The notes beneath the pieces are model-generated. The model ran no database searches. It was not told the origin of the DNA and saw only the letters and a list, made by a program, of their open reading frames with translations. Shown here one piece after another: positions 4,491 to 40,998 of a DNA stretch of 64,000 bases; within the stretch, counting starts at the first letter, position 1, and each line of letters begins with the position of its first letter. Source of the DNA: Escherichia phage PBM-3; the sequence record PV053165; one strand, written 5' to 3'. Position numbers and translations under genes: made by a program.

Positions 4491-5115
4491 ACAGAAACTT
4501 GCTGCGAAAGGTGGTGCAGTGGGAGGGGTTGTCGCTGCTATTCTGGGGGCAGTGTTCTATATGGAAGGGGGTTACGTAAACAATCCTCGTGACCCAGGTG
4601 GGGAAACTAATCATGGTATTACCCAATCAGTAGCTAAGACTCATAAAGAAGTTCTGGCTACTGAGTATGGTTGGGATGGTTCTATGAAGGGTTTATCTAA
4701 AGAGATGGCTGCTGAGATATACATTGATGACTATGTACTTAAACCTAACTTCGTAGCCTTCGCTGATATATCTCCTGCTGTAACGCATAAGCTAGTAGAT
4801 GCTGGTGTTAATACTGGTGTAACCCGTCCTGCTAAGTGGTTGCAGATGTCTCTTAATGAAATGTCACGTAATGGCAAAGACTACCCTAAAATACAGGTTG
4901 ATGGTAAAGTCGGTACAAGTACTGTTAATGCATATAAAGCATTACAGAAAAAACGGGGCAAAGTTGCAGCATGTCAGGTAATGATTAAGCTGCTTGATGC
5001 TAAACAACTGAACCACTATACCTCATTAAACATGCCAGACTTTACGTATGGTTGGGTAGCTAACCGAATAGGCAATGTGCCACTGGAGGCATGTAATGAA
5101 GATGCTAATCTCTAA
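4480..5115 (+). CDS. Endolysin, GH108-type muramidase with C-terminal peptidoglycan-binding domain; possible SAR-type N-terminus
   Basis: EGGYVNNPRDPGGETNHGIT matches the GH108 signature. N-terminus has a weakly hydrophobic Gly/Ala-rich segment (AAKGGAVGGVVAAILGAVF). RBS AAGGAAA before ATG. Confidence 0.75.
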   Translation: MKAKQKLAAKGGAVGGVVAAILGAVFYMEGGYVNNPRDPGGETNHGITQSVAKTHKEVLATEYGWDGSMKGLSKEMAAEIYIDDYVLKPNFVAFADISPAVTHKLVDAGVNTGVTRPAKWLQMSLNEMSRNGKDYPKIQVDGKVGTSTVNAYKALQKKRGKVAACQVMIKLLDAKQLNHYTSLNMPDFTYGWVANRIGNVPLEACNEDANL

Positions 5116-5602
5116 AGGTTGGCCTTATCTTCTGGTGGTGGTCCTTGGGGCCACCATTTACTTTTGGGGCAATTCCAATGGGCAGTCTACTGTTCAAAAG
5201 AAATGGGATGCCCAAAAGGTCGAAGACCAAAAGGCAACGCAAAAATTACAGGACAAATACAATGCTCTCCAAAGAAACCATAGTTATGAAGTCGGGTTAC
5301 TCACTTCCCGGTTGCAGACGGCTGAGAGTAATTACGCAAGCGAGCTTGCTCGCGTTAGCAGTGATTACGACAGCCGGATGCAACAGTCTGAAAGACGAGC
5401 ATCGGTATATAAACGTCAAGCCGAAGCCGGAACCCTTGAGTGCAGAAGTCTTGCAAGCCATGCAGCCAGACTCGACAATAGTCTTGAAGAAGGCAGACGT
5501 TTGGTTGAAGAACTCCGGGCAACTGTTAGACTCCGTGACAGCCAACTAATTGAGTTGGGTAAACAGATTCAGGCTGACCGTAAACTTTTTGAACAGGAAT
5601 AA
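5096..5602 (+). CDS. i-spanin (Rz-like)
   Basis: GGAGG 7 nt upstream of ATG at 5096. N-terminal TM ([16 protein letters not shown]) followed by a long charged coiled-coil; immediately after the endolysin. Confidence 0.6.
5262..5549 (+). CDS. o-spanin (Rz1-like), embedded in the +1 frame of the i-spanin gene
   Basis: Lipoprotein-type signal ending in lipobox-like TTAGC ([12 protein letters not shown]) and a Pro-containing mature part; lies entirely inside the Rz-like ORF in another frame. Confidence 0.55.
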   Translation: MLSKETIVMKSGYSLPGCRRLRVITQASLLALAVITTAGCNSLKDEHRYINVKPKPEPLSAEVLQAMQPDSTIVLKKADVWLKNSGQLLDSVTAN

Positions 5603-29098: not shown

Positions 29099-29340
29099 TA
29101 CTATTTACCCATAGCTGGGAGGCTTTTGGTTCTTACCACGAAGACAGTCCACGCTGACCAGGCTTGGGATTGATAGTCCCGTTCCTGTGGTAATTACTCA
29201 GGCTAGGATTTAAGGAGTTCCTATTCTCCAGCGAAATTCCCGTCGAAGGGAATAACAATACAATAGCAGCCACTGGACTGTCTTACCAGTGTTGTCTTTA
29301 GAGTGCGATGCAATCAGGACTATGTTACTGCTAAATGGGT

Positions 29341-29413
29341 GTCCACTACTGGATTTGAACCAGTGACTTTCCGATTATTAGTCGGTTGCTTTCCCAGTCT
29401 AAGCTAAGCGGAC
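29341..29413 (-). tRNA. tRNA gene (isotype uncertain; apparent anticodon AAT)
   Basis: Reverse complement folds as a cloverleaf: 7-bp acceptor GTCCGCT/AGTGGAC, D-stem GCTT/AAGC, T-arm ACTGG-TTCAAAT-CCAGT, anticodon stem CCGA/TCGG with loop CTAATAA. Confidence 0.6.
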
Positions 29414-29419
29414 ATAATA

Positions 29420-29495
29420 TGGTTACCCGGACAGGATTCGAACCTGCGTCCTAGTTGGTTTACTAGTGGGGCTTTACCACTAAGCCTACCGGGTA
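29420..29495 (-). tRNA. tRNA gene with encoded CCA and non-canonical anticodon arm
   Basis: Reverse complement: acceptor TACCCGG/CCGGGTA, discriminator A plus CCA, D-stem GGCT/AGCC, T-arm GCAGG-TTCGAAT-CCTGT. The anticodon arm only pairs as CTAGT/ACTAG with a 6-nt (or 8-nt) loop. Confidence 0.6.
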
Positions 29496-33951: not shown

Positions 33952-34007
33952 TATTTTTCCTCGTTTAATTTAGGAGTCCTTCAAACCAAAGAAAGACTCC
34001 TGTTTAC

Positions 34008-36161
34008 TTATTTGCCAGCGTAGCGTTTAGCCACGGTGACCATTACGGTTGCATTCAATTCATCATCTGGTAATGGATTAGCCAGTTTCTTATTGAATGT
34101 GTGGACGGCTTGCTGTACTTGAGCAAAGTCCCAACCACTGTCAACCAATGCCAGTGCGTACTTAATCATTTGATTATTACGATTACCGGAGGCAATACGA
34201 CTAGCGAACCAACGCTCCAGATTATCCAACGACTGTACTTCCTTCATCTGGTTCTGGAACTGCTCGTTCTTACTAGTACGAGGAATAAAGTCACGCACAT
34301 CTAACAGATTCGCATCAAGATTGTAATGATAGGAACCAGTCTCACAGGACATCCACTTCTTGGCTCGTTGGTTAGCAGACTCATCTGTTTCAAATGGTAG
34401 CCAAGCCATAACGTTATTCATGAACTCTTTGTATTCCTCAGTGTCGAGGTGTAACTCATAGTTCATTGGAATAATCAGACGGAAGCGGTTCTCTTCATCA
34501 GTATGACGCTTGGTGGTATAGGTCATGAACTTATATTCCTTCATTAGTTCATGGCACGTATGCAGGGGTACTCCACCATCACAGTCAATAACAATCATGT
34601 TAAATCCTGGGATAACATTTTCTTCAGAACGATGCCCATTCTTCATGTGATGGTTTACCCAGTGCATACCGGGAGCTTGGGTTAATACATGCAACTGGTC
34701 GAACGGTACACGTTCACCAATGTAGTCATAAGCAAAGCTATCACTATACGCCACAATCATCTCATTGATGTCTGTCTCTTTAAGAGTTTCACCACGGAAG
34801 AACTCAATACCTTCATTGAAGGTCTTCTTAATGATGATGTGCTGCTTGTAACCCCATGCTGTAGCAAGAGTCATCATCTCATTACGAGCTGCATTACCAC
34901 TCTTATAGAATGGTAAAGACTCCACCAAATCAGCATGGGTTACTTCTTTACCTACAGAAGCAATGTACTTAGCCAGCTTCACATAAGCCTTCTCACGATT
35001 GAGGATTGTCTGAAATGCTGCTCCAGATTCTTCTACAAGCAGAATTGCTTGTTTAAGGTGGGTCATCTCAATGAATGAACTTTGGTCAACAAACGCCAGT
35101 GCACCTGCCAGCTTAAGTGCTTTGAAATAACGGTGAGAAATTTCAGCTTTACGAATATCTTCATGGTCAGCCATAGCTTCTGCTTGCTTCTCACAATCAA
35201 TTTTGTAAGCAATCAGAGCAATACCCACGGCATCTTCTACAACCATCTTAAAACCAAACAGGTTTGGGTCAGCCAGACTATGGAAATGGTTAGCCCACTT
35301 ACCAAGAGTCTGTACGTTATCTTGTTTAATCAGGTTACGGTAGATTTCTTCCGGGGTTAGTGTTGCATGTGCTCTCTTGTCTAAGTGACCAGTAGCAAAC
35401 AGACAGCGACGTGCATACCCTATATCGAGAAAGCCATAGAACTGGTCTTCAGTCTGACCACCATCCAGCAGCTTACTCGGAGTACCGAACAGCAGCAGGT
35501 TAGTTGGAGTTTTTCCATCCAATTCTTCACCACGAACGCTTTCAGCAGTATTCTTGGTTAGCTTCTGTTTTACTTTTCCCTGGTCATATAACTCCAGGAA
35601 TAGGGTTAGTACATCCATGTTAGCCAACAGGTTCGAACCAATTTCATCAATCTGAAGATTGATTGAACCACACCCAGCCATTAACAGCTTATGCCGTAGC
35701 TGTTTAACTGCTGGTGGAGTACCAGAGTCAAACGTAAACGGATATGCCCCGGCACGTTTATACTCTGCTTCAACTTTATCAAACTCTTCCTGCTGGTCAG
35801 TACCCTGACGAGCAGAACGTTCGTTAGCAATCTTCCATAGACGATCATTTGCAATGACGGGCATGGTGTCTTCCATAAAGCGTTTACGGAAGCCAGACAT
35901 GAACCCGTCTTCAATGATATTTACTGAGTGACCTTTACCGAAACCAGATGTAGCCAACGCTATAGCGTAGATGTTTACCGGCAGGTCACCACGGTCTTTA
36001 GTTACAATGGTTGCACCCATGCAGGATGCCATTTTAGCCAAGAAGTAGGCTACTTCGACACGGAAGAATCCCCGGTCATTATTCTGGGTTTTATTGCAGA
36101 GCACATCTACGATTTCTTCAATCGCTGGATGGTGACTGATGCCAGTAAGGTCGATACTCAT
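34008..36161 (-). CDS. Putative DNA primase (primase-polymerase-like)
   Basis: 717-aa ORF in the replication module. C-terminal region has an AEP-like acidic motif NMIVIDCDGG followed by a conserved His and a primase C-terminal-like tail. Confidence 0.4.
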   Translation of the reverse strand: MSIDLTGISHHPAIEEIVDVLCNKTQNNDRGFFRVEVAYFLAKMASCMGATIVTKDRGDLPVNIYAIALATSGFGKGHSVNIIEDGFMSGFRKRFMEDTMPVIANDRLWKIANERSARQGTDQQEEFDKVEAEYKRAGAYPFTFDSGTPPAVKQLRHKLLMAGCGSINLQIDEIGSNLLANMDVLTLFLELYDQGKVKQKLTKNTAESVRGEELDGKTPTNLLLFGTPSKLLDGGQTEDQFYGFLDIGYARRCLFATGHLDKRAHATLTPEEIYRNLIKQDNVQTLGKWANHFHSLADPNLFGFKMVVEDAVGIALIAYKIDCEKQAEAMADHEDIRKAEISHRYFKALKLAGALAFVDQSSFIEMTHLKQAILLVEESGAAFQTILNREKAYVKLAKYIASVGKEVTHADLVESLPFYKSGNAARNEMMTLATAWGYKQHIIIKKTFNEGIEFFRGETLKETDINEMIVAYSDSFAYDYIGERVPFDQLHVLTQAPGMHWVNHHMKNGHRSEENVIPGFNMIVIDCDGGVPLHTCHELMKEYKFMTYTTKRHTDEENRFRLIIPMNYELHLDTEEYKEFMNNVMAWLPFETDESANQRAKKWMSCETGSYHYNLDANLLDVRDFIPRTSKNEQFQNQMKEVQSLDNLERWFASRIASGNRNNQMIKYALALVDSGWDFAQVQQAVHTFNKKLANPLPDDELNATVMVTVAKRYAGK

Positions 36162-36673
36162 TTGATTAATCCTATGCTCTTATTAGTGACGGCATATTCT
36201 CCGAAGTATTTTACGGCAGCTAAGTCGTATACTTTGGCAGCTTCAATTGCTTCCAGGAATACACCTAAATGAATTGATTTACGGTTTACTTTGATTTTGG
36301 CTAAGTAGTTACCCCTGAACTTAGTAACACCCATAAAACCACTGGTGTTGTTTTTATTCAGTCCACGGTTAGCACCATTGGTGCTTTTATCCGCTTCCCT
36401 TAGATTGTCTATCCAGTTGTGGTGACGTATGGTGTCTTTATGGTCTATTAAACCAGTAGGCCACATACCGTACACGTACAACCAAGCTAACCTATGGGCA
36501 GCTTCCCGTTTGGCATCAACTGTTATGTAGAGATAACCGTCACTGTTATTGAGCGACCCAGCAACACTACCGACAGGTGTTCGGTTACTGAGGGAGATGC
36601 GGCGAGTAAATATCCCAGTAAGTGGGTCATAATGCAGCAACTCTTTTAGCCGTTGCTGAGTCAGCTTAATCAT
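36158..36673 (-). CDS. HNH homing endonuclease with AP2-type DNA-binding domain
   Basis: HNH core GYLYITVDAKREAAHRLAWLYVYG...DHKDTIRHHNWIDNLREADKSTNGANRG followed by AP2-like SGFMGVTKFRGNYLAKIKVNRKSIHLGVFLEAIEAAKVYDLAAVKYFG. 4-nt overlaps with both neighbours. Confidence 0.75.
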   Translation of the reverse strand: MIKLTQQRLKELLHYDPLTGIFTRRISLSNRTPVGSVAGSLNNSDGYLYITVDAKREAAHRLAWLYVYGMWPTGLIDHKDTIRHHNWIDNLREADKSTNGANRGLNKNNTSGFMGVTKFRGNYLAKIKVNRKSIHLGVFLEAIEAAKVYDLAAVKYFGEYAVTNKSIGLIK

Positions 36674-37650
36674 GATGGAAAATATCTCTCTCTTTGTTTG
36701 CAAATGGTTGCGACAGGGCAGTATAAGCAACGCTTAACCTGCCCCTCCACGACCTTGATAGCACCCTTGCCACCTTTTTCAGCCATGAAGATACGGGCAG
36801 ATGCCATATCGTCAAAGTTTTTGGTACTTCTGGCTCCAGGCATATCTACCTTAGAAGCATCAGAGAAGTATTTGAACTGTGGCTCTGTTCGCCACAACTC
36901 CTCGTCAGTACATTCAGGAATTTCCTCTTCAGGAGCATCCCAGTACTTTTCGATGAGATGTATCTTCTCTTCTACCCAACGTTCAGTCTTATCGACAGAT
37001 AACAACGGAATATCCTTATGCATAATACGATTAGCAGGATAGTTCGGATTGCTATTAGCCATGTGTTTCATGAAGTCAGTGAAGATGTAGTTAATACGGA
37101 TTACATCCTCGGTAATGATGTCGTTGTGAATCCAACGGTACAAGCTACCTTGCATCTTGTGTTCATCATCACGGGAACCAGCAACCCAGGAATAGGTTGA
37201 GGTAGACTTAAAGTCTTGCAATAGACCTTCTGTTACGATGTCGAACTTACCTCCGATAGTCCAACCCTTAACTACCCTGGTTCCACGTTGTTCAATGTAG
37301 ATTGGGATAAGGTCAGGGTTAGCATCAAAGTCTGCTTTGGTTGGGTTAATGACTACTGCATCAATTACTCGCTGAGGATAACCCAACTTTTTCAATGCAG
37401 TCTTATGGCCTAACTTCCAGGCTTTCTCAATAGAATCGTGTAAGCCAGTACCCATTGATGTGGAGACAAAATCCATAACATCAATTGACTGGTCACTGAG
37501 GTCTACACGATGCTTCATGACGATTTGCTTAAGTGGCTTAAGCAGTGTGGTTACAGACAGATACTTAGGATTGTCTACATAATCATACTCGTCATGTAAT
37601 AGCCATACAGCCAGGGCCAGCGAGACATCATGGTTGTTGGTTATCTTCAT
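36670..37650 (-). CDS. PD-(D/E)xK exonuclease (RecB/Cas4-like) with C-terminal Cys cluster
   Basis: GGKFDIVTE ... EHKMQGSLY fits the D...E.K nuclease core; C-terminal RCLYCPVATICK Cys motif. Confidence 0.5.
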   Translation of the reverse strand: MKITNNHDVSLALAVWLLHDEYDYVDNPKYLSVTTLLKPLKQIVMKHRVDLSDQSIDVMDFVSTSMGTGLHDSIEKAWKLGHKTALKKLGYPQRVIDAVVINPTKADFDANPDLIPIYIEQRGTRVVKGWTIGGKFDIVTEGLLQDFKSTSTYSWVAGSRDDEHKMQGSLYRWIHNDIITEDVIRINYIFTDFMKHMANSNPNYPANRIMHKDIPLLSVDKTERWVEEKIHLIEKYWDAPEEEIPECTDEELWRTEPQFKYFSDASKVDMPGARSTKNFDDMASARIFMAEKGGKGAIKVVEGQVKRCLYCPVATICKQRERYFPS

Positions 37651-38117
37651 CAGTAAGTAATCCTGTATCTATGCACCTGGTTCCAACGAATACTCTCTAC
37701 CTCATCGAAGCTATAGCTGACTATGTTATCTAGTTCACCTTTGTACGCTACCTCAATGAACTGAAAGTTCACTGTTAGATAAGGATTTCCATTCCCCGGG
37801 TAATGCCAGCATCTCCCAGTAGCAGTGATATCTGTGGCAGGTAATTCATCTACTAACTTCTCTTTAGTAAGAATACGATTAGCGTAATGAACCAATTTCT
37901 CACAGTCATAAACTGAAGTGTTTCCAGGTTTACCATTACCCATACGGGCAGCAGCATTTCGCCATAGAGCTTTAAAGGCACAACCTTCATCGAAGGTCAT
38001 GCCTAGTGCTTGGATAATATCCTCACACTCTGCTTGGTATGGCTCTTGCTCTTTCCGTTGGGGATTCTTAATTGTAACTACATAGTAGTTATTAAGACCA
38101 CCGGAGAGCTTAGTCAT
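37650..38117 (-). CDS. DUF3310-like protein
   Basis: Segment CAFKALWRNAAARMGNGKPGNTSVYDCEKLVHYANRI matches the DUF3310 pattern as recalled. Confidence 0.4.
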   Translation of the reverse strand: MTKLSGGLNNYYVVTIKNPQRKEQEPYQAECEDIIQALGMTFDEGCAFKALWRNAAARMGNGKPGNTSVYDCEKLVHYANRILTKEKLVDELPATDITATGRCWHYPGNGNPYLTVNFQFIEVAYKGELDNIVSYSFDEVESIRWNQVHRYRITY

Positions 38118-38422
38118 TATTCCCCCTTGGGAATCATGTTTGCCTGGAACTCTGGTTCAGACATCAGGCCCAGGTTGTTAATAGATAGATAAACGATGTC
38201 TTTCAAGTCAACCGAGGTATCAAAACGCTGGTCCAGACTAATCTTCAGTGAGTGATTGGCACGAGCCAAATCTTTATAGGTCACATGAGGTTCGTCAGTG
38301 AGCAGCATTGTGTTCATGGTAAGCAGGGAGCCATCATCAGCTTTAGGAAGCTGGAAGATTACCTGTGCTGCCACCATCCAATGATACTTTTTGACTACAG
38401 TTTCTTTAGTACTTTTGGTCAT
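38117..38422 (-). CDS. Hypothetical protein
   Basis: 101-aa ORF translationally coupled between the DNA polymerase and the DUF3310-like gene. Confidence 0.35.
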   Translation of the reverse strand: MTKSTKETVVKKYHWMVAAQVIFQLPKADDGSLLTMNTMLLTDEPHVTYKDLARANHSLKISLDQRFDTSVDLKDIVYLSINNLGLMSEPEFQANMIPKGE

Positions 38423-40998
38423 GCGAATGCCTTTTGAATTATTTGATGAACTTCTTCTGGGGTAGCGTGATTTGGAATTTCAATCTCGTTAGCCCACGTT
38501 GGGTAAAACAAGGATAGTTCCCCACCCAAACCAACTTCTGGATGAGCAATATCAGGATGATCCTGCCAGTTAACGGCTTCAACCAAGTGCTTGTTCGTAT
38601 ACTGCAAGGTGTCCATGTTATCGCGAATCATGAAGTATTGGGCATCATGAATGTGAATACAAGGGCGTATATCTAACCTGAACTCACTGGTTCTGACTTT
38701 ACGCATAAACTCTGAGCCAGCACGGTTATTCAGTAGACACCAGCTTTGACCTAATGCGTTACCAGCAGTTCTGCCTTCTGCTTCTGCTTCATATGGAGTC
38801 TTACATGTCCCACGTAATACCTGAGCCAGTAAAGGAGTACGCACTCTCAAACCAAATGCAGCAGTTACATAACCAGTCTTAGCAGCTTCATCTAGCTTAG
38901 CCTGAACCCACATATCACTAACTACATAGAGATCGTGATAACGTTTCTCTGTAGTCTTAGCCTTCTCTTCGGAGAAGCCACAGTTTTTCATTAAGCCCAT
39001 ATAAGTACCACCATAGGTAAGTAAGAAGGTTGGAGCCTTCGAGTCACTACGCAATGATTTGTACTTATGCTGAATGGAGTTAATGGATTCTACTGTGTCT
39101 TCAATGTCTGGCATCTGCTCACCAAAATAAGCATATGCGCGAAGACTATGACCGTCATAACCATCGGTATATACCTTAAGCTTCTGTGGGTCTTTAGTCG
39201 TCAGTGCAGAGATTCTGTCTTCCAGCGAGGCGAAATCCAAGCCGCAAAATATCCAGCCTGGAGGAGCTTCGAAGCATTTCTTAATCTTCTTGGCATATTT
39301 AGAGCCGGATGGAATTGTTTGTAGATTTGGCTCTGAAGCCGATAACCTACCGGAGACTGTGCCTCCCAGATTGAGGTTACCGAACAGGTAGTGCCAGCCA
39401 TCTGGTCCCGGTTGGGCATTCCTGAAAGCTGGTATAAAGCTAGTGATAATCTTATCCACGAGCTTATAGTCGATAAGTGCATTGAGCAGTTCCTTAACAT
39501 CTTCACTCTGCGTATGTGTACGCAGTGCTTTAATAGTGTCACCGTCAGTAGCAGGTTGCTTGCTCTTAGTAAGACCAAGAACCGGTAAGCCGATATAATC
39601 AAATAACAACTTCTGTAGTTGTGGACCAGAGTTAGGATTAAACTCGATGTCACAATCAGCCAGTGTTACCTGTTTCTTTTTCAACTTAGCATTCTTATCG
39701 TCTACCCATTCCTGACGAAGCATCAGGGTAAAGTTCTTCATGAGGTTAGACTCACGAATAGTTTTCAGTGCCTGGTTCCTGTCAGTTTCCATTTCTTCAG
39801 CTACCTGGTTAACGGTTTCCATATTCATGGGCATACCGGTTAACTGCATCTGAATGATGTCTTCGCAAGCTGGCTTAAAGATGTTGTTGTAAACATCTAA
39901 TTGGTCATCAGCAATGAGAGTATCCCAGTGCTTCTCATAGGTGTACCAAGTACACAAGCCATCTATGAGGTTGTAGCGTAACAGCTGCTCATTAGGAATA
40001 AGGCGAATGTCTTTAATATCATCCTGAGCATAGTTACCAGCATACTCCTGAGCCTGCTCTTTTAGGCTAAGATGATTGCCAGCACAACTGTTAGTAGCCA
40101 GGTAAGTAATTAATTTAGTACAGTCCCAGTTACGCAGCATGATGTCCATGCCATGCAGTAGTCCTTCTGTATCAATCAGGTTACCCATGAACAGCTGATA
40201 GATAAGCACATACACGTCATAGCTAATGTTGTGATACATCTGCCGTTGGGTGTACTTAATGAAGAACTCGCGCAGAAGATTTCGAACAATATCATTTCTG
40301 TTGATACGTCCATAAGGTGCTTCAGTAGCCCCCTCAATTGGCTCGTAGTCCACATTAAAGGCTATGCCCTGTGTCTTACTCCAACAGAATGTAATTGTTC
40401 CTATACCGGCGTTATAGTGCTTTAAACCGAATGCTTCGATGTCTATAGCCAAAGGCTTATTCATCTCAAGCAACTGGTCTAACCAGGCTTTAATCTTCTC
40501 AGGAGTATCTGGATAGGCTTCAAACTCAATGATTCCCTGACCTGGTTCAGCATACTGCCCACGTATATGGTTGAGTAATGCATCCATACCCTGAGCAATC
40601 TTGGATTTCACTACAGGTGGGTCATAAAATACCTGTCTGTAACTAGGCGTATAGATAACCTTCTGCTTACCCCATACTGAATCACAAACATAGCCGAGGT
40701 TAGCCTCTGCTTTAGCTTCCTTAGTCAGTATTTTAAAGTAGTCAGAATCGGTACAGATAATGTATTGAGTTTCCGCATCATCCAGTACTTGTTGCAGTTC
40801 CTGCTGTATGAACTCCTTAATCTCCCTTGCAGGAGTCTTCTTCTTGCCTGGAGCAGAATGAAGTTCAATGAAGATGAAGTCTTCCATGCTTAGGTCATAA
40901 GGCAGCAGGTAGGTTTTAATCATCTCCTCCCTTCGGATTTGATGACCGAGGATAGCAATAGGATACTTACCAGTATCTTGAGAGGTGATGTAACGCAT
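38419..40998 (-). CDS. DNA polymerase, family A, with 3'-5' exonuclease domain
   Basis: Exo I-like AIDIEAFGL; motif A GLDFASLEDRI; motif B RSDSKAPTFLLTYGG; motif C IHIHDAQ. Confidence 0.9.
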   Translation of the reverse strand: MRYITSQDTGKYPIAILGHQIRREEMIKTYLLPYDLSMEDFIFIELHSAPGKKKTPAREIKEFIQQELQQVLDDAETQYIICTDSDYFKILTKEAKAEANLGYVCDSVWGKQKVIYTPSYRQVFYDPPVVKSKIAQGMDALLNHIRGQYAEPGQGIIEFEAYPDTPEKIKAWLDQLLEMNKPLAIDIEAFGLKHYNAGIGTITFCWSKTQGIAFNVDYEPIEGATEAPYGRINRNDIVRNLLREFFIKYTQRQMYHNISYDVYVLIYQLFMGNLIDTEGLLHGMDIMLRNWDCTKLITYLATNSCAGNHLSLKEQAQEYAGNYAQDDIKDIRLIPNEQLLRYNLIDGLCTWYTYEKHWDTLIADDQLDVYNNIFKPACEDIIQMQLTGMPMNMETVNQVAEEMETDRNQALKTIRESNLMKNFTLMLRQEWVDDKNAKLKKKQVTLADCDIEFNPNSGPQLQKLLFDYIGLPVLGLTKSKQPATDGDTIKALRTHTQSEDVKELLNALIDYKLVDKIITSFIPAFRNAQPGPDGWHYLFGNLNLGGTVSGRLSASEPNLQTIPSGSKYAKKIKKCFEAPPGWIFCGLDFASLEDRISALTTKDPQKLKVYTDGYDGHSLRAYAYFGEQMPDIEDTVESINSIQHKYKSLRSDSKAPTFLLTYGGTYMGLMKNCGFSEEKAKTTEKRYHDLYVVSDMWVQAKLDEAAKTGYVTAAFGLRVRTPLLAQVLRGTCKTPYEAEAEGRTAGNALGQSWCLLNNRAGSEFMRKVRTSEFRLDIRPCIHIHDAQYFMIRDNMDTLQYTNKHLVEAVNWQDHPDIAHPEVGLGGELSLFYPTWANEIEIPNHATPEEVHQIIQKAFA

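Follow-up and report, generated by a model that had tools for sequence, protein, structure and literature searches.

Gene organization at the exonuclease-primase junction

The window, which is the whole stretch of 64,000 nucleotides analysed from Escherichia phage PBM-3 (PV053165), represents in this segment a Gamaleyavirus (G7C-like, N4-related coliphage) and is identical here to Escherichia phage PBM-2. An open reading frame of 171 amino acids, with an ATG start and a TGA stop, is located at 36158-36673 on the minus strand and is referred to below as the putative homing endonuclease gene (HEG). Its upstream neighbour (36670-37650, minus strand) encodes a PD-(D/E)XK exonuclease similar to N4 gp42 (phrog_2139, 1.3e-151), and its downstream neighbour (34008-36161, minus strand), the presumed target gene, encodes an N4 gp43-like primase (PriCT_1; phrog_2135, score 1237) whose N-terminal motif DLTGVxHHPAIEE is conserved across N4-like phages. 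As read from the sequence, the HEG start codon (36673-36671) overlaps the exonuclease TGA (36672-36670), and the HEG TGA (36160-36158) overlaps the primase ATG (36161-36159); the two resulting ATGA overlaps (36670-36673 and 36158-36161, minus strand) form a 4-nt direct repeat bounding an insert of 512 nt. The first-pass annotation had described a gene wedged between primase-like and exonuclease genes with 4-nt overlaps on both sides, and its reading frame, coordinates, neighbours and overlaps were all borne out.

HEG falls into the free-standing class, being a self-contained nuclease ORF between an intact exonuclease and an intact primase, with no intron or intein, while the empty allele joins the two neighbours directly. 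A longer TTG-initiated form (from 36730, 190 aa), which is annotated in phage PhAPEC5, is not supported, the homologues beginning at the ATG position. When the family HMM was run against all six-frame ORFs of the window, only HEG was matched, and no second copy of the family was found. No promoter or terminator signal beside HEG exceeded the shuffled expectation, and its composition (GC 41-45%, similar to the flanks) gave no signal of foreign origin.

The sequence GAGAGAGA at 36685-36692 is the putative ribosome-binding region upstream of HEG, which HEG would take over from the primase that uses it in HEG-less phages; the sequence upstream of HEG is identical to that found before the primase ATG in all empty-site genomes. 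An AGGA Shine-Dalgarno-like motif (36170-36173, minus strand) lies 8 nt before the primase ATG within the last HEG codons, and other alleles residing at this junction have AGG(A) or GAGG motifs similarly placed in their final codons. The AGGA motif presumably functions as the primase ribosome-binding site, replacing the one displaced by the insert, and the final HEG codons, Gly-Leu, seem to double as the primase Shine-Dalgarno sequence.

Domain architecture of the HEG protein

The first-pass annotation had considered both the HNH and the AP2 motif to be clear, which stood for the former and only in part for the latter. An I-HmuI-like HNH (His-Me finger) nuclease domain spans approximately residues 32-105 (36359-36580, minus strand), as suggested by the profile alignment to I-HmuI, the invariant residues and the predicted model, and includes H60-R61, D77-H78, N86, N90 and N99. 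The Pfam family HNH_3 (PF13392) matched residues 58-100 with 41.5 bits (cut-off 24.8; E=1.1e-10), and the whole protein matched PHROG 99, 'HNH endonuclease' (1.5e-64). When the HEG family profile was compared with I-HmuI (PDB 1u3e), residues 24-114 of the latter were aligned (E=1.2e-6), including its HRL, DHKD, N..NLR and N elements; D77-H78 is aligned with the DH of DHKD, and N86/N90 as well as N99 also find their counterparts. Four of these residues (H60, H78, N86 and N99) are invariant across 49 homologues. Based on what is known of I-HmuI, we take the HEG residues to comprise an Asp-His general-base pair, a structural Asn and a metal-ligand Asn.

The AlphaFold model of the HEG protein (pLDDT 93.7) places a strand at 75-78, a second strand at 91-94 and a helix at 96-101 in the nuclease half, which corresponds to the beta-beta-alpha order. 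A Foldseek search against the PDB returned no significant HNH structure for this half, with I-PpoI reaching an E-value of only 0.13; I-HmuI was not retrieved, and AP2 domains alone were significant. The link to I-HmuI therefore comes from the profile-sequence comparison.

The C-terminal part, approximately residues 112-164 (36182-36340, minus strand), is assigned to an AP2/ERF-type DNA-binding domain. The Pfam AP2 model reached only 13.4 bits against a gathering cut-off of 33.3 (E=0.1), and this only with the C-terminal 70 aa scanned alone, while a precomputed PF00847 match is present in about half of the homologues. According to the sequence matches in the PDB, the single sequence recovered the plant AP2/ERF domains of WRI1 (7wq5, 6e-8) and TEM1 (7et4, 1.3e-3) by phmmer, and the family profile recovered WRI1 (2e-12), TEM1 (5e-8), ERF096 (3e-4) and AtERF1 (2.5e-3). 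The model contains three strands (116-119, 122-129, 132-139) and a helix (142-160) within residues 116-160, which is the AP2 arrangement of an antiparallel three-stranded sheet packed against a single helix. Superposition of this part on the AP2 domain of TEM1 gave an rmsd of 1.1 A (53 residues), and that on AtERF1 (1gcc) one of 1.2 A (56 residues); taken together, TEM1 (7et4/7et5) and AtERF1 gave a range of 1.0-1.2 A over 53-56 residues. These matches and the predicted fold confirm the C-terminal domain as AP2 despite its failing the Pfam cut-off.

Distribution, divergence and the primase patch

HEG is carried by phages PBM-2, UE-M6, PhAPEC5 and ZQ2, whereas primase and exonuclease overlap directly in the HEG-less phages UE-S5a, UE-M3, UE-S5b, G7C, Bp4, IME11 and others. 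In UE-S5a and UE-M3, whose identity to the window is 99.3% in this region, precisely 512 nt are missing, and the two neighbouring genes overlap by ATGA. Among 57 phage-collection records whose alignment covers 80% or more of the 4.5-kb segment, the allele occurs in only six (four Gamaleyavirus phages). Variable presence among close relatives, as the first-pass annotation had expected, is thus what the comparison of junctions revealed, and the gene is not universal at this position.

A similar picture was obtained from 80 N4-like IMG/VR loci picked by their exonuclease, where the junction is empty in 69, occupied by an HNH relative at 33-98% identity in eight, and occupied by unrelated spacers in three. 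The unusual spacers of 146 nt and 271 nt at this junction in L075, L085 and L087 were considered as decayed HEG remnants and rejected, since comparison with the family gave no match even when filtering was switched off. Across N4-like phages, relatives at 33-81% identity sit sporadically at this junction, and those at 62-81% identity are found there in other genera, which could also reflect long vertical residence and repeated loss. Gamaleyavirus itself has at least three deeply diverged alleles at the junction (100%, 47% and 33% identity to the window protein), each associated with a different form of primase codons 2-9.

The divergence of HEG disagrees with that of its flanks. Between PBM-2 and PhAPEC5, dS is 0.018 for HEG, 0.34 for the primase and 0.26 for the exonuclease; between PBM-2 and ZQ2, the corresponding values are 0.054, 0.43 and 0.25, meaning that HEG is 5-19 times less diverged than the flanks in these two comparisons. 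The tract of low divergence is centred on HEG and includes about 360 nt of the primase and about 30 nt of the exonuclease. The opposite pattern was found in two metagenomic relatives (L011 and L012), where dS is 1.27 for HEG and 0.23-0.38 for the flanks. Every HEG copy is full length, and dN/dS between diverged alleles is 0.10-0.13, showing that HEG is under purifying selection.

The primase end adjoining the insert was compared between PBM-2 and the HEG-less UE-S5a, and no difference was found over 2287 nt of the primase, followed by 11 substitutions within the 28 nt abutting the junction (primase nt 9-36; 36126-36153, minus strand), as also seen in the haplotype table. A fixed-difference scan of 3134 flanking columns found only three that separate the six carriers from the ten non-carriers, namely primase nt 21, 22 and 26 (positions 36141, 36140 and 36136), which change Gly-Val-Val/Thr to Gly-Ile-Ser and hold on two different flanking haplotypes. 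Over the 980 nt of the exonuclease side, the same scan detected no carrier-diagnostic column that would point to a target there, and the last 35 nt of the exonuclease are invariant in nearly all Gamaleyavirus-level loci. In N4-like IMG/VR contigs, a 20-mer of the patch occurs only together with HEG, in a small sample with PhAPEC5 as the sole such match. Scanning IMG/VR for the carrier-type 20-mer also retrieved one contig that matches no HNH, primase or exonuclease query, which is likely a chance match.

In empty alleles the patch is likely to be what the enzyme recognises or cleaves, and in carriers the determinant of self-immunity, as predicted from these alignments; the carrier-diagnostic substitutions are consistent with self-immunity. 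Tight linkage of nt 21-26 to HEG would also arise via simple hitchhiking. Codons 8-9 still read Val-Thr in two other HEG lineages at this junction (L017 and the EC1-UPM type), and the target prediction is therefore limited to the HEG lineage of the window. The position of the three carrier-diagnostic nucleotides within the 28-nt patch of 11 substitutions is the new detail here. The homing endonuclease interpretation itself is not new, because the GenBank records already name an 'HNH homing endonuclease' in PBM-2 and UE-M6 and an HNH (homing) endonuclease in PhAPEC5 and ZQ2.

Relation to known homing systems and proposed function

The nuclease domain of HEG is homologous to that of I-HmuI, an HNH homing endonuclease encoded by an intron of Bacillus phage SPO1 (PDB 1u3e). 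I-HmuI is a strand-specific nickase, and since enzymes of this type are nickases, a double-strand break by the HEG protein is not assured. I-HmuI resides inside a group I intron and has C-terminal modules of the NUMOD/helix-turn-helix type, whereas HEG is free-standing and carries an AP2 domain. Both belong to group 2 of the His-Me finger nucleases (zf-His_Me_endon/HNH_3), a group described as homing endonucleases whose DNA-binding domains are modular and include AP2 (PMC5714182).

The N-terminal HNH and C-terminal AP2 arrangement is also that of the 'IPA-HNH' genes of vibriophage ICP1 (Barth et al. 2023, PMC10448857), and HNH-AP2 is a recognised family of homing endonucleases (PMC10448857; PMC5714182). 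The ICP1 genes are located near or within essential phage genes and are regarded as boundaries of genetic exchange; their HNH domains are too diverged for Pfam HNH_3 (PMC10448857), whereas the HEG protein passes this model. Relatives of HEG were found in 619 phage records at E<=1e-20, and 201 structural matches to its protein were found in BFVD. In the literature, we found no mapped cleavage site for any HNH-AP2 member, and membership in this family therefore rests on architecture together with population-genetic behaviour. An HNH-AP2 homing endonuclease family was reportedly described by Magnani et al. in 2004.

The 'intronless homing' endonucleases of phage T4 (the HNH enzymes MobA-MobE, and the Seg endonucleases) are likewise free-standing nuclease genes, variably present between essential genes (PMC2988022; PMC2790892). 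Such genes spread by break repair with co-conversion, and localised marker exclusion is possible (PMC2988022; PMC2790892). The T4 enzymes have other DNA-binding modules and frequently cleave at sites hundreds to thousands of bp away from the gene that encodes them (PMC2988022), whereas the predicted determinant of HEG is located 21-26 nt from the insertion point; because of this T4 precedent, the true cleavage site of HEG could lie elsewhere. Mobility was demonstrated experimentally for the T4 genes, while that of HEG is read from sequence comparison. Also comparable is the G7C gp41.1-type HNH endonuclease of Gamaleyavirus, a paralogue of similar size (50-51% aa identity), which is also free-standing and variably present in the replication module. 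It is located on the other side of the exonuclease, at the exonuclease-gp41 junction, which is empty in the window (37650), while EC1-UPM has homing endonuclease genes at both exonuclease junctions.

Taken together, the ORF is most probably (about 0.8) a member of the HNH(I-HmuI-like)-AP2 family of homing endonuclease genes, free-standing at the exonuclease-primase junction of a Gamaleyavirus coliphage and homing by the mechanism proposed here. This agrees with the first-pass annotation, which had read the gene as a free-standing homing endonuclease in a phage replication module, and finds support in the HNH and AP2 architecture, the ATGA junctions, the variable presence and the divergence discordant with the flanks. 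Mobility is supported because the divergence disagrees with the flanks, the gene is under purifying selection, and carrier-specific substitutions lie beside the insertion point; the homing reading appears well supported, if indirectly. Enzymatic activity, the kind of cut (nick or double-strand break) and the exact target are inferred. In the literature, no cleavage or biased-inheritance test was found for the HEG protein or any close homologue.

According to the proposed mechanism, when a carrier and a phage with an empty junction infect the same cell, the HEG protein would be translated off the replication-gene mRNA, coupled to the exonuclease stop. In the empty allele, its AP2 domain would bind and its HNH domain would nick or cut somewhere in the ~36 nt that open the primase gene, around 5'-ACCGGAGTM-3' (primase codons 6-9). 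With the carrier genome as template, phage recombination functions would then repair the break, and the recipient would acquire the 512-nt gene along with a little flanking sequence. The carrier itself would be protected by its changes at primase nt 21, 22 and 26, where Val-Val/Thr has become Ile-Ser. The insert would be harmless to the phage; it would take the old ribosome-binding site of the primase and give the primase a new AGGA in its own last codons.

HEG could instead be a passive accessory gene ('moron') that moves by ordinary homologous recombination of its flanks, without site-specific homing, and is perhaps useful in attacking competitor or host DNA. Mosaicism is general in these phages: many module swaps have been described in G7C-like phages (bioRxiv 10.1101/542787), several short clusters of SNPs that have nothing to do with HEG distinguish PBM-2 from UE-S5a, and gene boundaries may be the sole places that tolerate insertions. 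However, HNH-AP2 relatives at 33-47% identity share the exact junction while 69 of the 80 related junctions are empty, the sole flank positions diagnostic of carriers are no more than 26 nt from the insert and persist on two flank haplotypes, and HNH-AP2 is a recognised homing family (PMC10448857), which makes passive movement improbable. Another rival is a catalytically dead or domesticated derivative acting as an AP2-mediated DNA-binding regulator of the replication module, as plant AP2 factors derive from such nucleases. The intact, family-wide invariant catalytic residues of the I-HmuI type (D77-H78, N86, N99 and H60), the near-isogenic phages living without HEG, and a sporadic distribution with flank-discordant divergence typical of a selfish element render this very unlikely, even though AP2 domains are bona fide transcription-factor modules, co-option of homing endonuclease DNA-binding domains is documented (PMC10448857), and a dN/dS of ~0.1 indicates selection on the protein. 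An HNH cofactor of terminase in DNA packaging, of the HK97 gp74 type, has as its sole support an HNH motif in a tailed phage and was rejected as practically negligible, given the location in the replication module away from terminase and portal genes, the assignment to HNH_3/I-HmuI group 2, outside the packaging-associated group (PMC5714182), and a dispensability evident from viable HEG-less close relatives, which effectively refute it.

Returning to the homing reading, HEG alone is of little importance, being an ordinary member of a very common phage family with an already annotated function. The near-isogenic natural pairs, namely carriers PBM-2 and UE-M6 against non-carriers UE-S5a and UE-M3, together with the predicted 28-nt patch, offer a ready system for testing homing by an HNH-AP2 enzyme. 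As a recombination boundary within the replication module, HEG also helps to interpret genome mosaicism in Schitoviridae, and carrier status could skew how mixed infections turn out when G7C-like phages are combined in cocktails. We tentatively suggest, as a possibility on the doubtful side, that one old HNH-AP2 lineage tracks the exonuclease-primase junction across several N4-like genera by recognising the DNA for the near-universal primase motif DLTGV(T)HHP, and that the Gamaleyavirus alleles represent a natural allelic series in which pairs of nuclease specificity and target immunity compete for a single site. If this were true, carriers would exclude primase-proximal markers of their non-carrier relatives in mixed infections, therapeutic cocktails included.

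Occupied and empty exonuclease/primase junctions

The predicted homing endonuclease gene (HEG) is located on the minus strand at 36158..36673 (ATG 36673, TGA 36158) and encodes 171 aa. It lies between a PD-(D/E)XK exonuclease gene (N4 gp42-like, 36670-37650, phrog_2139) and a primase gene (N4 gp43-like, 34008-36161, PriCT_1, phrog_2135). Direct reading of the DNA showed an ATGA overlap at each end, the HEG start (36673-36671) with the exonuclease stop (36672-36670) and the HEG stop (36160-36158) with the primase start (36161-36159). The ORF, both neighbours and the 4-nt overlaps claimed in the first-pass annotation are confirmed by ORF calling, translation, domain assignment and the DNA sequence itself. 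An upstream TTG at 36730, the annotated start in phage PhAPEC5, would extend the product to 190 aa, while the ATG is the better start because the N-termini of 48 aligned homologues match its position.

Over window bases 34000-38500, identity is 100% to Escherichia phage PBM-2 and 99.7% to UE-M6; both phages are classified in Schitoviridae, Enquatrovirinae, as members of the genus Gamaleyavirus, which comprises G7C-like coliphages related to N4. Phages UE-S5a and UE-M3, with 99.3% identity to the window over the HEG segment, have a direct ATGA overlap of the primase and exonuclease genes, and PBM-2 minus 512 nt is exactly colinear with their locus. Among 57 phage-collection records whose alignments cover 80% or more of the 4.5-kb segment, the HEG allele was found in six only, representing four phages (PBM-2, UE-M6, PhAPEC5, and ZQ2) with 98-100% nucleotide identity. 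Shigella virus Moo19, of another genus (Moovirus), carries, in the same position, an allele with a nucleotide identity of 79.6%.

An HNH-independent survey, in which 80 N4-like IMG/VR loci were retrieved via the exonuclease, revealed 69 empty junctions (gap -17 to +63 nt), including that of the 70,153-bp contig L029, eight occupied by an HNH relative of the HEG (33-98% identity), and three holding unrelated spacers (146 or 271 nt). No HNH-AP2 family similarity was found in these spacers (146 nt in L075, 271 nt in both L085 and L087), each of which may be a different small gene or a remnant too decayed to recognise. The predicted variable presence among close relatives holds, and relatives without the gene show that it is not universally present. 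Metagenomic homologues looked up independently (81%, 70%, 62%, and 47% identity) all lie between exonuclease-like and primase-like genes on N4-like contigs. According to the survey occupancy and these independently located homologues, the exonuclease/primase junction is a recurrent, sporadically occupied home of the HNH-AP2 family.

Gamaleyavirus holds at least three diverged junction alleles, namely the PBM-2 type, the L017 type (47%), and the EC1-UPM type (33%). The deeply diverged alleles with 47% and 33% identity to the HEG protein are located in the retrieved loci L017 (4001-4516), L007 (3652-4140), and L025-L027, from other Gamaleyavirus-like genomes. Each has its own linked variant of primase codons 2-7, synonymous or near-synonymous (e.g., GTC GAT TTA or ACA/ACT GGG), which suggests separate specificities.

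Neighbouring loci

The exonuclease/gp41-like junction (window 37650), at the opposite end of the exonuclease gene, is a second HEG insertion site in the genus. It is occupied by a paralogue of 50-51% identity in G7C (gp41.1), Bp4, ECBP1, PD38, and EC1-UPM (loci L005, which is Bp4, 4635-5132; L006 4636-5133; L007 5111-5503) and is empty in the window, where the exonuclease and gp41-like genes share 1 nt. Endonuclease genes flank the exonuclease on both sides in EC1-UPM, which resembles the 'HEG islands' of Barth et al. 2023 (PMC10448857). The window DNA polymerase gene (38419-40998) is one uninterrupted ORF of 859 aa; in PhAPEC5 (L004 5920-7437), the annotation places within it a 672-bp intron encoding another HNH endonuclease, and in Bp4 (L005 5982-7563) it is annotated in two pieces. 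Phage UE-S5b (L008 4309-5172) has an extra ~412 nt resembling a tandem duplication, which spans the 5' part of the exonuclease and the gp41-like gene and could be either genuine or an artefact of assembly; its exonuclease is annotated in two pieces, one as 'UvrD/REP helicase'.

Two adjacent tRNA-like genes are present at 29336-29495 on the minus strand, one being tRNA-Ile (anticodon AAT) and the other assigned no anticodon by ARAGORN; the corresponding region of UE-M6 is annotated as tRNA-Ile, 'tRNA-OTHER', and tRNA-Cys. UE-M6 also contains a 10.3-kb ORF (L098 17450-27802, ~3450 aa) annotated as 'DNA polymerase'. This label in the public record is probably wrong, because size and position point to the giant virion RNA polymerase that N4-like phages typically encode.

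Evidence for horizontal spread and a predicted target

Between PBM-2 and PhAPEC5, dS was 0.018 for the HEG, 0.34 for the primase, and 0.26 for the exonuclease; between PBM-2 and ZQ2, the values were 0.054, 0.43, and 0.25. Between PBM-2 and the metagenomic Gamaleyavirus contigs L011 and L012, dS was 1.27 for the HEG, 0.38 (L011) for the primase, and 0.23-0.24 for the exonuclease. By these estimates, the HEG is much younger than its flanks relative to PhAPEC5 and ZQ2 and much older relative to L011/L012. PBM-2 shows near-zero differences from PhAPEC5 or ZQ2 over the HEG, ~360 nt of primase, and ~30 nt of exonuclease, and 5-28 differences per 100 nt beyond this tract, which looks like a conversion tract with the HEG at its centre. 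All copies are full length and dN/dS between diverged alleles is 0.10-0.13, indicating that the protein has been kept functional.

The PBM-2 and UE-S5a primase genes show no difference over 2287 nt and then 11 differences in the 28 nt adjoining the insert (primase nt 9-36, window 36126-36153). On the exonuclease side, no more than three differences, all scattered, fall within 125 nt. At primase codons 7-9, the carriers of this lineage (PBM-2, PhAPEC5, ZQ2, Moo19, L011, and L012) have GGC/GGT ATC/ATA AGT/AGC (Gly-Ile-Ser), and each of the ten empty-site genomes has GGA GTA GTG (Gly-Val-Val) or GGA GTC ACT (Gly-Val-Thr). When exonuclease (980 nt) and primase (2154 nt) sequences were scanned for columns with no base in common between these six carriers and ten non-carriers, only primase nt 21, 22, and 26 (window 36141, 36140, and 36136) were recovered. 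The carrier changes occur on two different haplotypes, G7C-like (PBM-2, PhAPEC5) and ECBP1-like (L011, L012, Moo19), which argues for maintained linkage over a single hitchhiking event. A passive accessory gene moved by general recombination alone is a less likely reading, which leaves unexplained both the repeated landing of very diverged relatives in the same junction and the confinement of diagnostic flank changes to the edge of the insert.

As an active homing endonuclease, the enzyme would recognise and cut or nick the empty allele around ACCGGAGTM, and the Ile-Ser variant would shield carriers from their own enzyme. The patch encodes the start of the DLTGVxHHPAIEE motif conserved across N4-like primases, and homing enzymes favour conserved sequence. 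AP2 domains reportedly prefer GC-rich sites, as quoted from Magnani 2004 in PMC10448857. We infer this target and protection as predictions, because some of the pattern could stem from hitchhiking, the cleavage sites of free-standing T4 enzymes are often distant from the gene for the enzyme (PMC2988022), and two other junction alleles lack the Ile-Ser change.

The encoded protein and its expression

Pfam HNH_3 covers residues 58-100 (E=1.1e-10, above threshold), PHROG 99 'HNH endonuclease' matches at 1.5e-64, and a 49-homologue profile matches I-HmuI (1u3e), an HNH homing endonuclease with a solved structure, at E=1.2e-6, with the HRL, DHKD, N..NLR, and N motifs aligned. A nuclease-dead regulator is unlikely, since the catalytic residues are intact and invariant; H60, H78, N86, and N99 are invariant in the homologue alignment. 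The HNH motif was as clear as first described, whereas AP2 fell below the Pfam cut-off (13.4 bits vs 33.3) and was recovered through matches to known structures and the predicted fold. Plant AP2/ERF structures were matched by the HEG sequence alone (WRI1 6e-8, TEM1 1.3e-3) and by the family profile (WRI1 2e-12, TEM1 5e-8, ERF096 3e-4, AtERF1 2.5e-3). In a confident AlphaFold2 model (pLDDT 93.7, pTM 0.79), three strands and a helix at the C-terminus fit the AP2 domain of TEM1 with an rmsd of 1.0-1.2 A (53 residues, 38% identity) and AtERF1 with one of 1.2 A (56 residues).

Because both halves are matched, the predicted architecture is an I-HmuI-like HNH nuclease with AP2, a combination described as a homing endonuclease family (PMC5714182; PMC10448857). 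The protein belongs to the HNH_3/I-HmuI group by sequence and fold, with an AP2 module, and behaves similarly to the free-standing T4 Mob and Seg endonucleases ('intronless homing'). HNH-AP2 relatives are very common in phages (619 phage records, E<=1e-20), and BFVD yielded 201 structural matches. A terminase-cofactor HNH was ruled out by the position, subfamily, and dispensability of the gene.

In empty genomes, GAGAGAGA-N11 precedes the primase ATG inside the exonuclease 3' end, and in carriers the HEG ATG occupies that place. The last HEG codons (…AGC ATA GGA TTA ATC AAA TGA) provide AGGA (36170-36173) 8 nt before the primase ATG, and the final codons of other alleles at the junction include similar AGG(A) or GAGG motifs. 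The HEG showed neither a promoter or terminator signal of its own nor a compositional anomaly; its expression presumably relies on the replication-module transcript and translational coupling.

The first-pass interpretation is supported, and the HEG fits a known kind throughout; public databases already contain the identical sequence with this function predicted for it, and the ORF carries the annotation 'HNH homing endonuclease' in both the PBM-2 and UE-M6 records. What is added here is a precise empty-site comparison, evidence of horizontal spread, and a testable prediction of a 28-nt target and immunity region.
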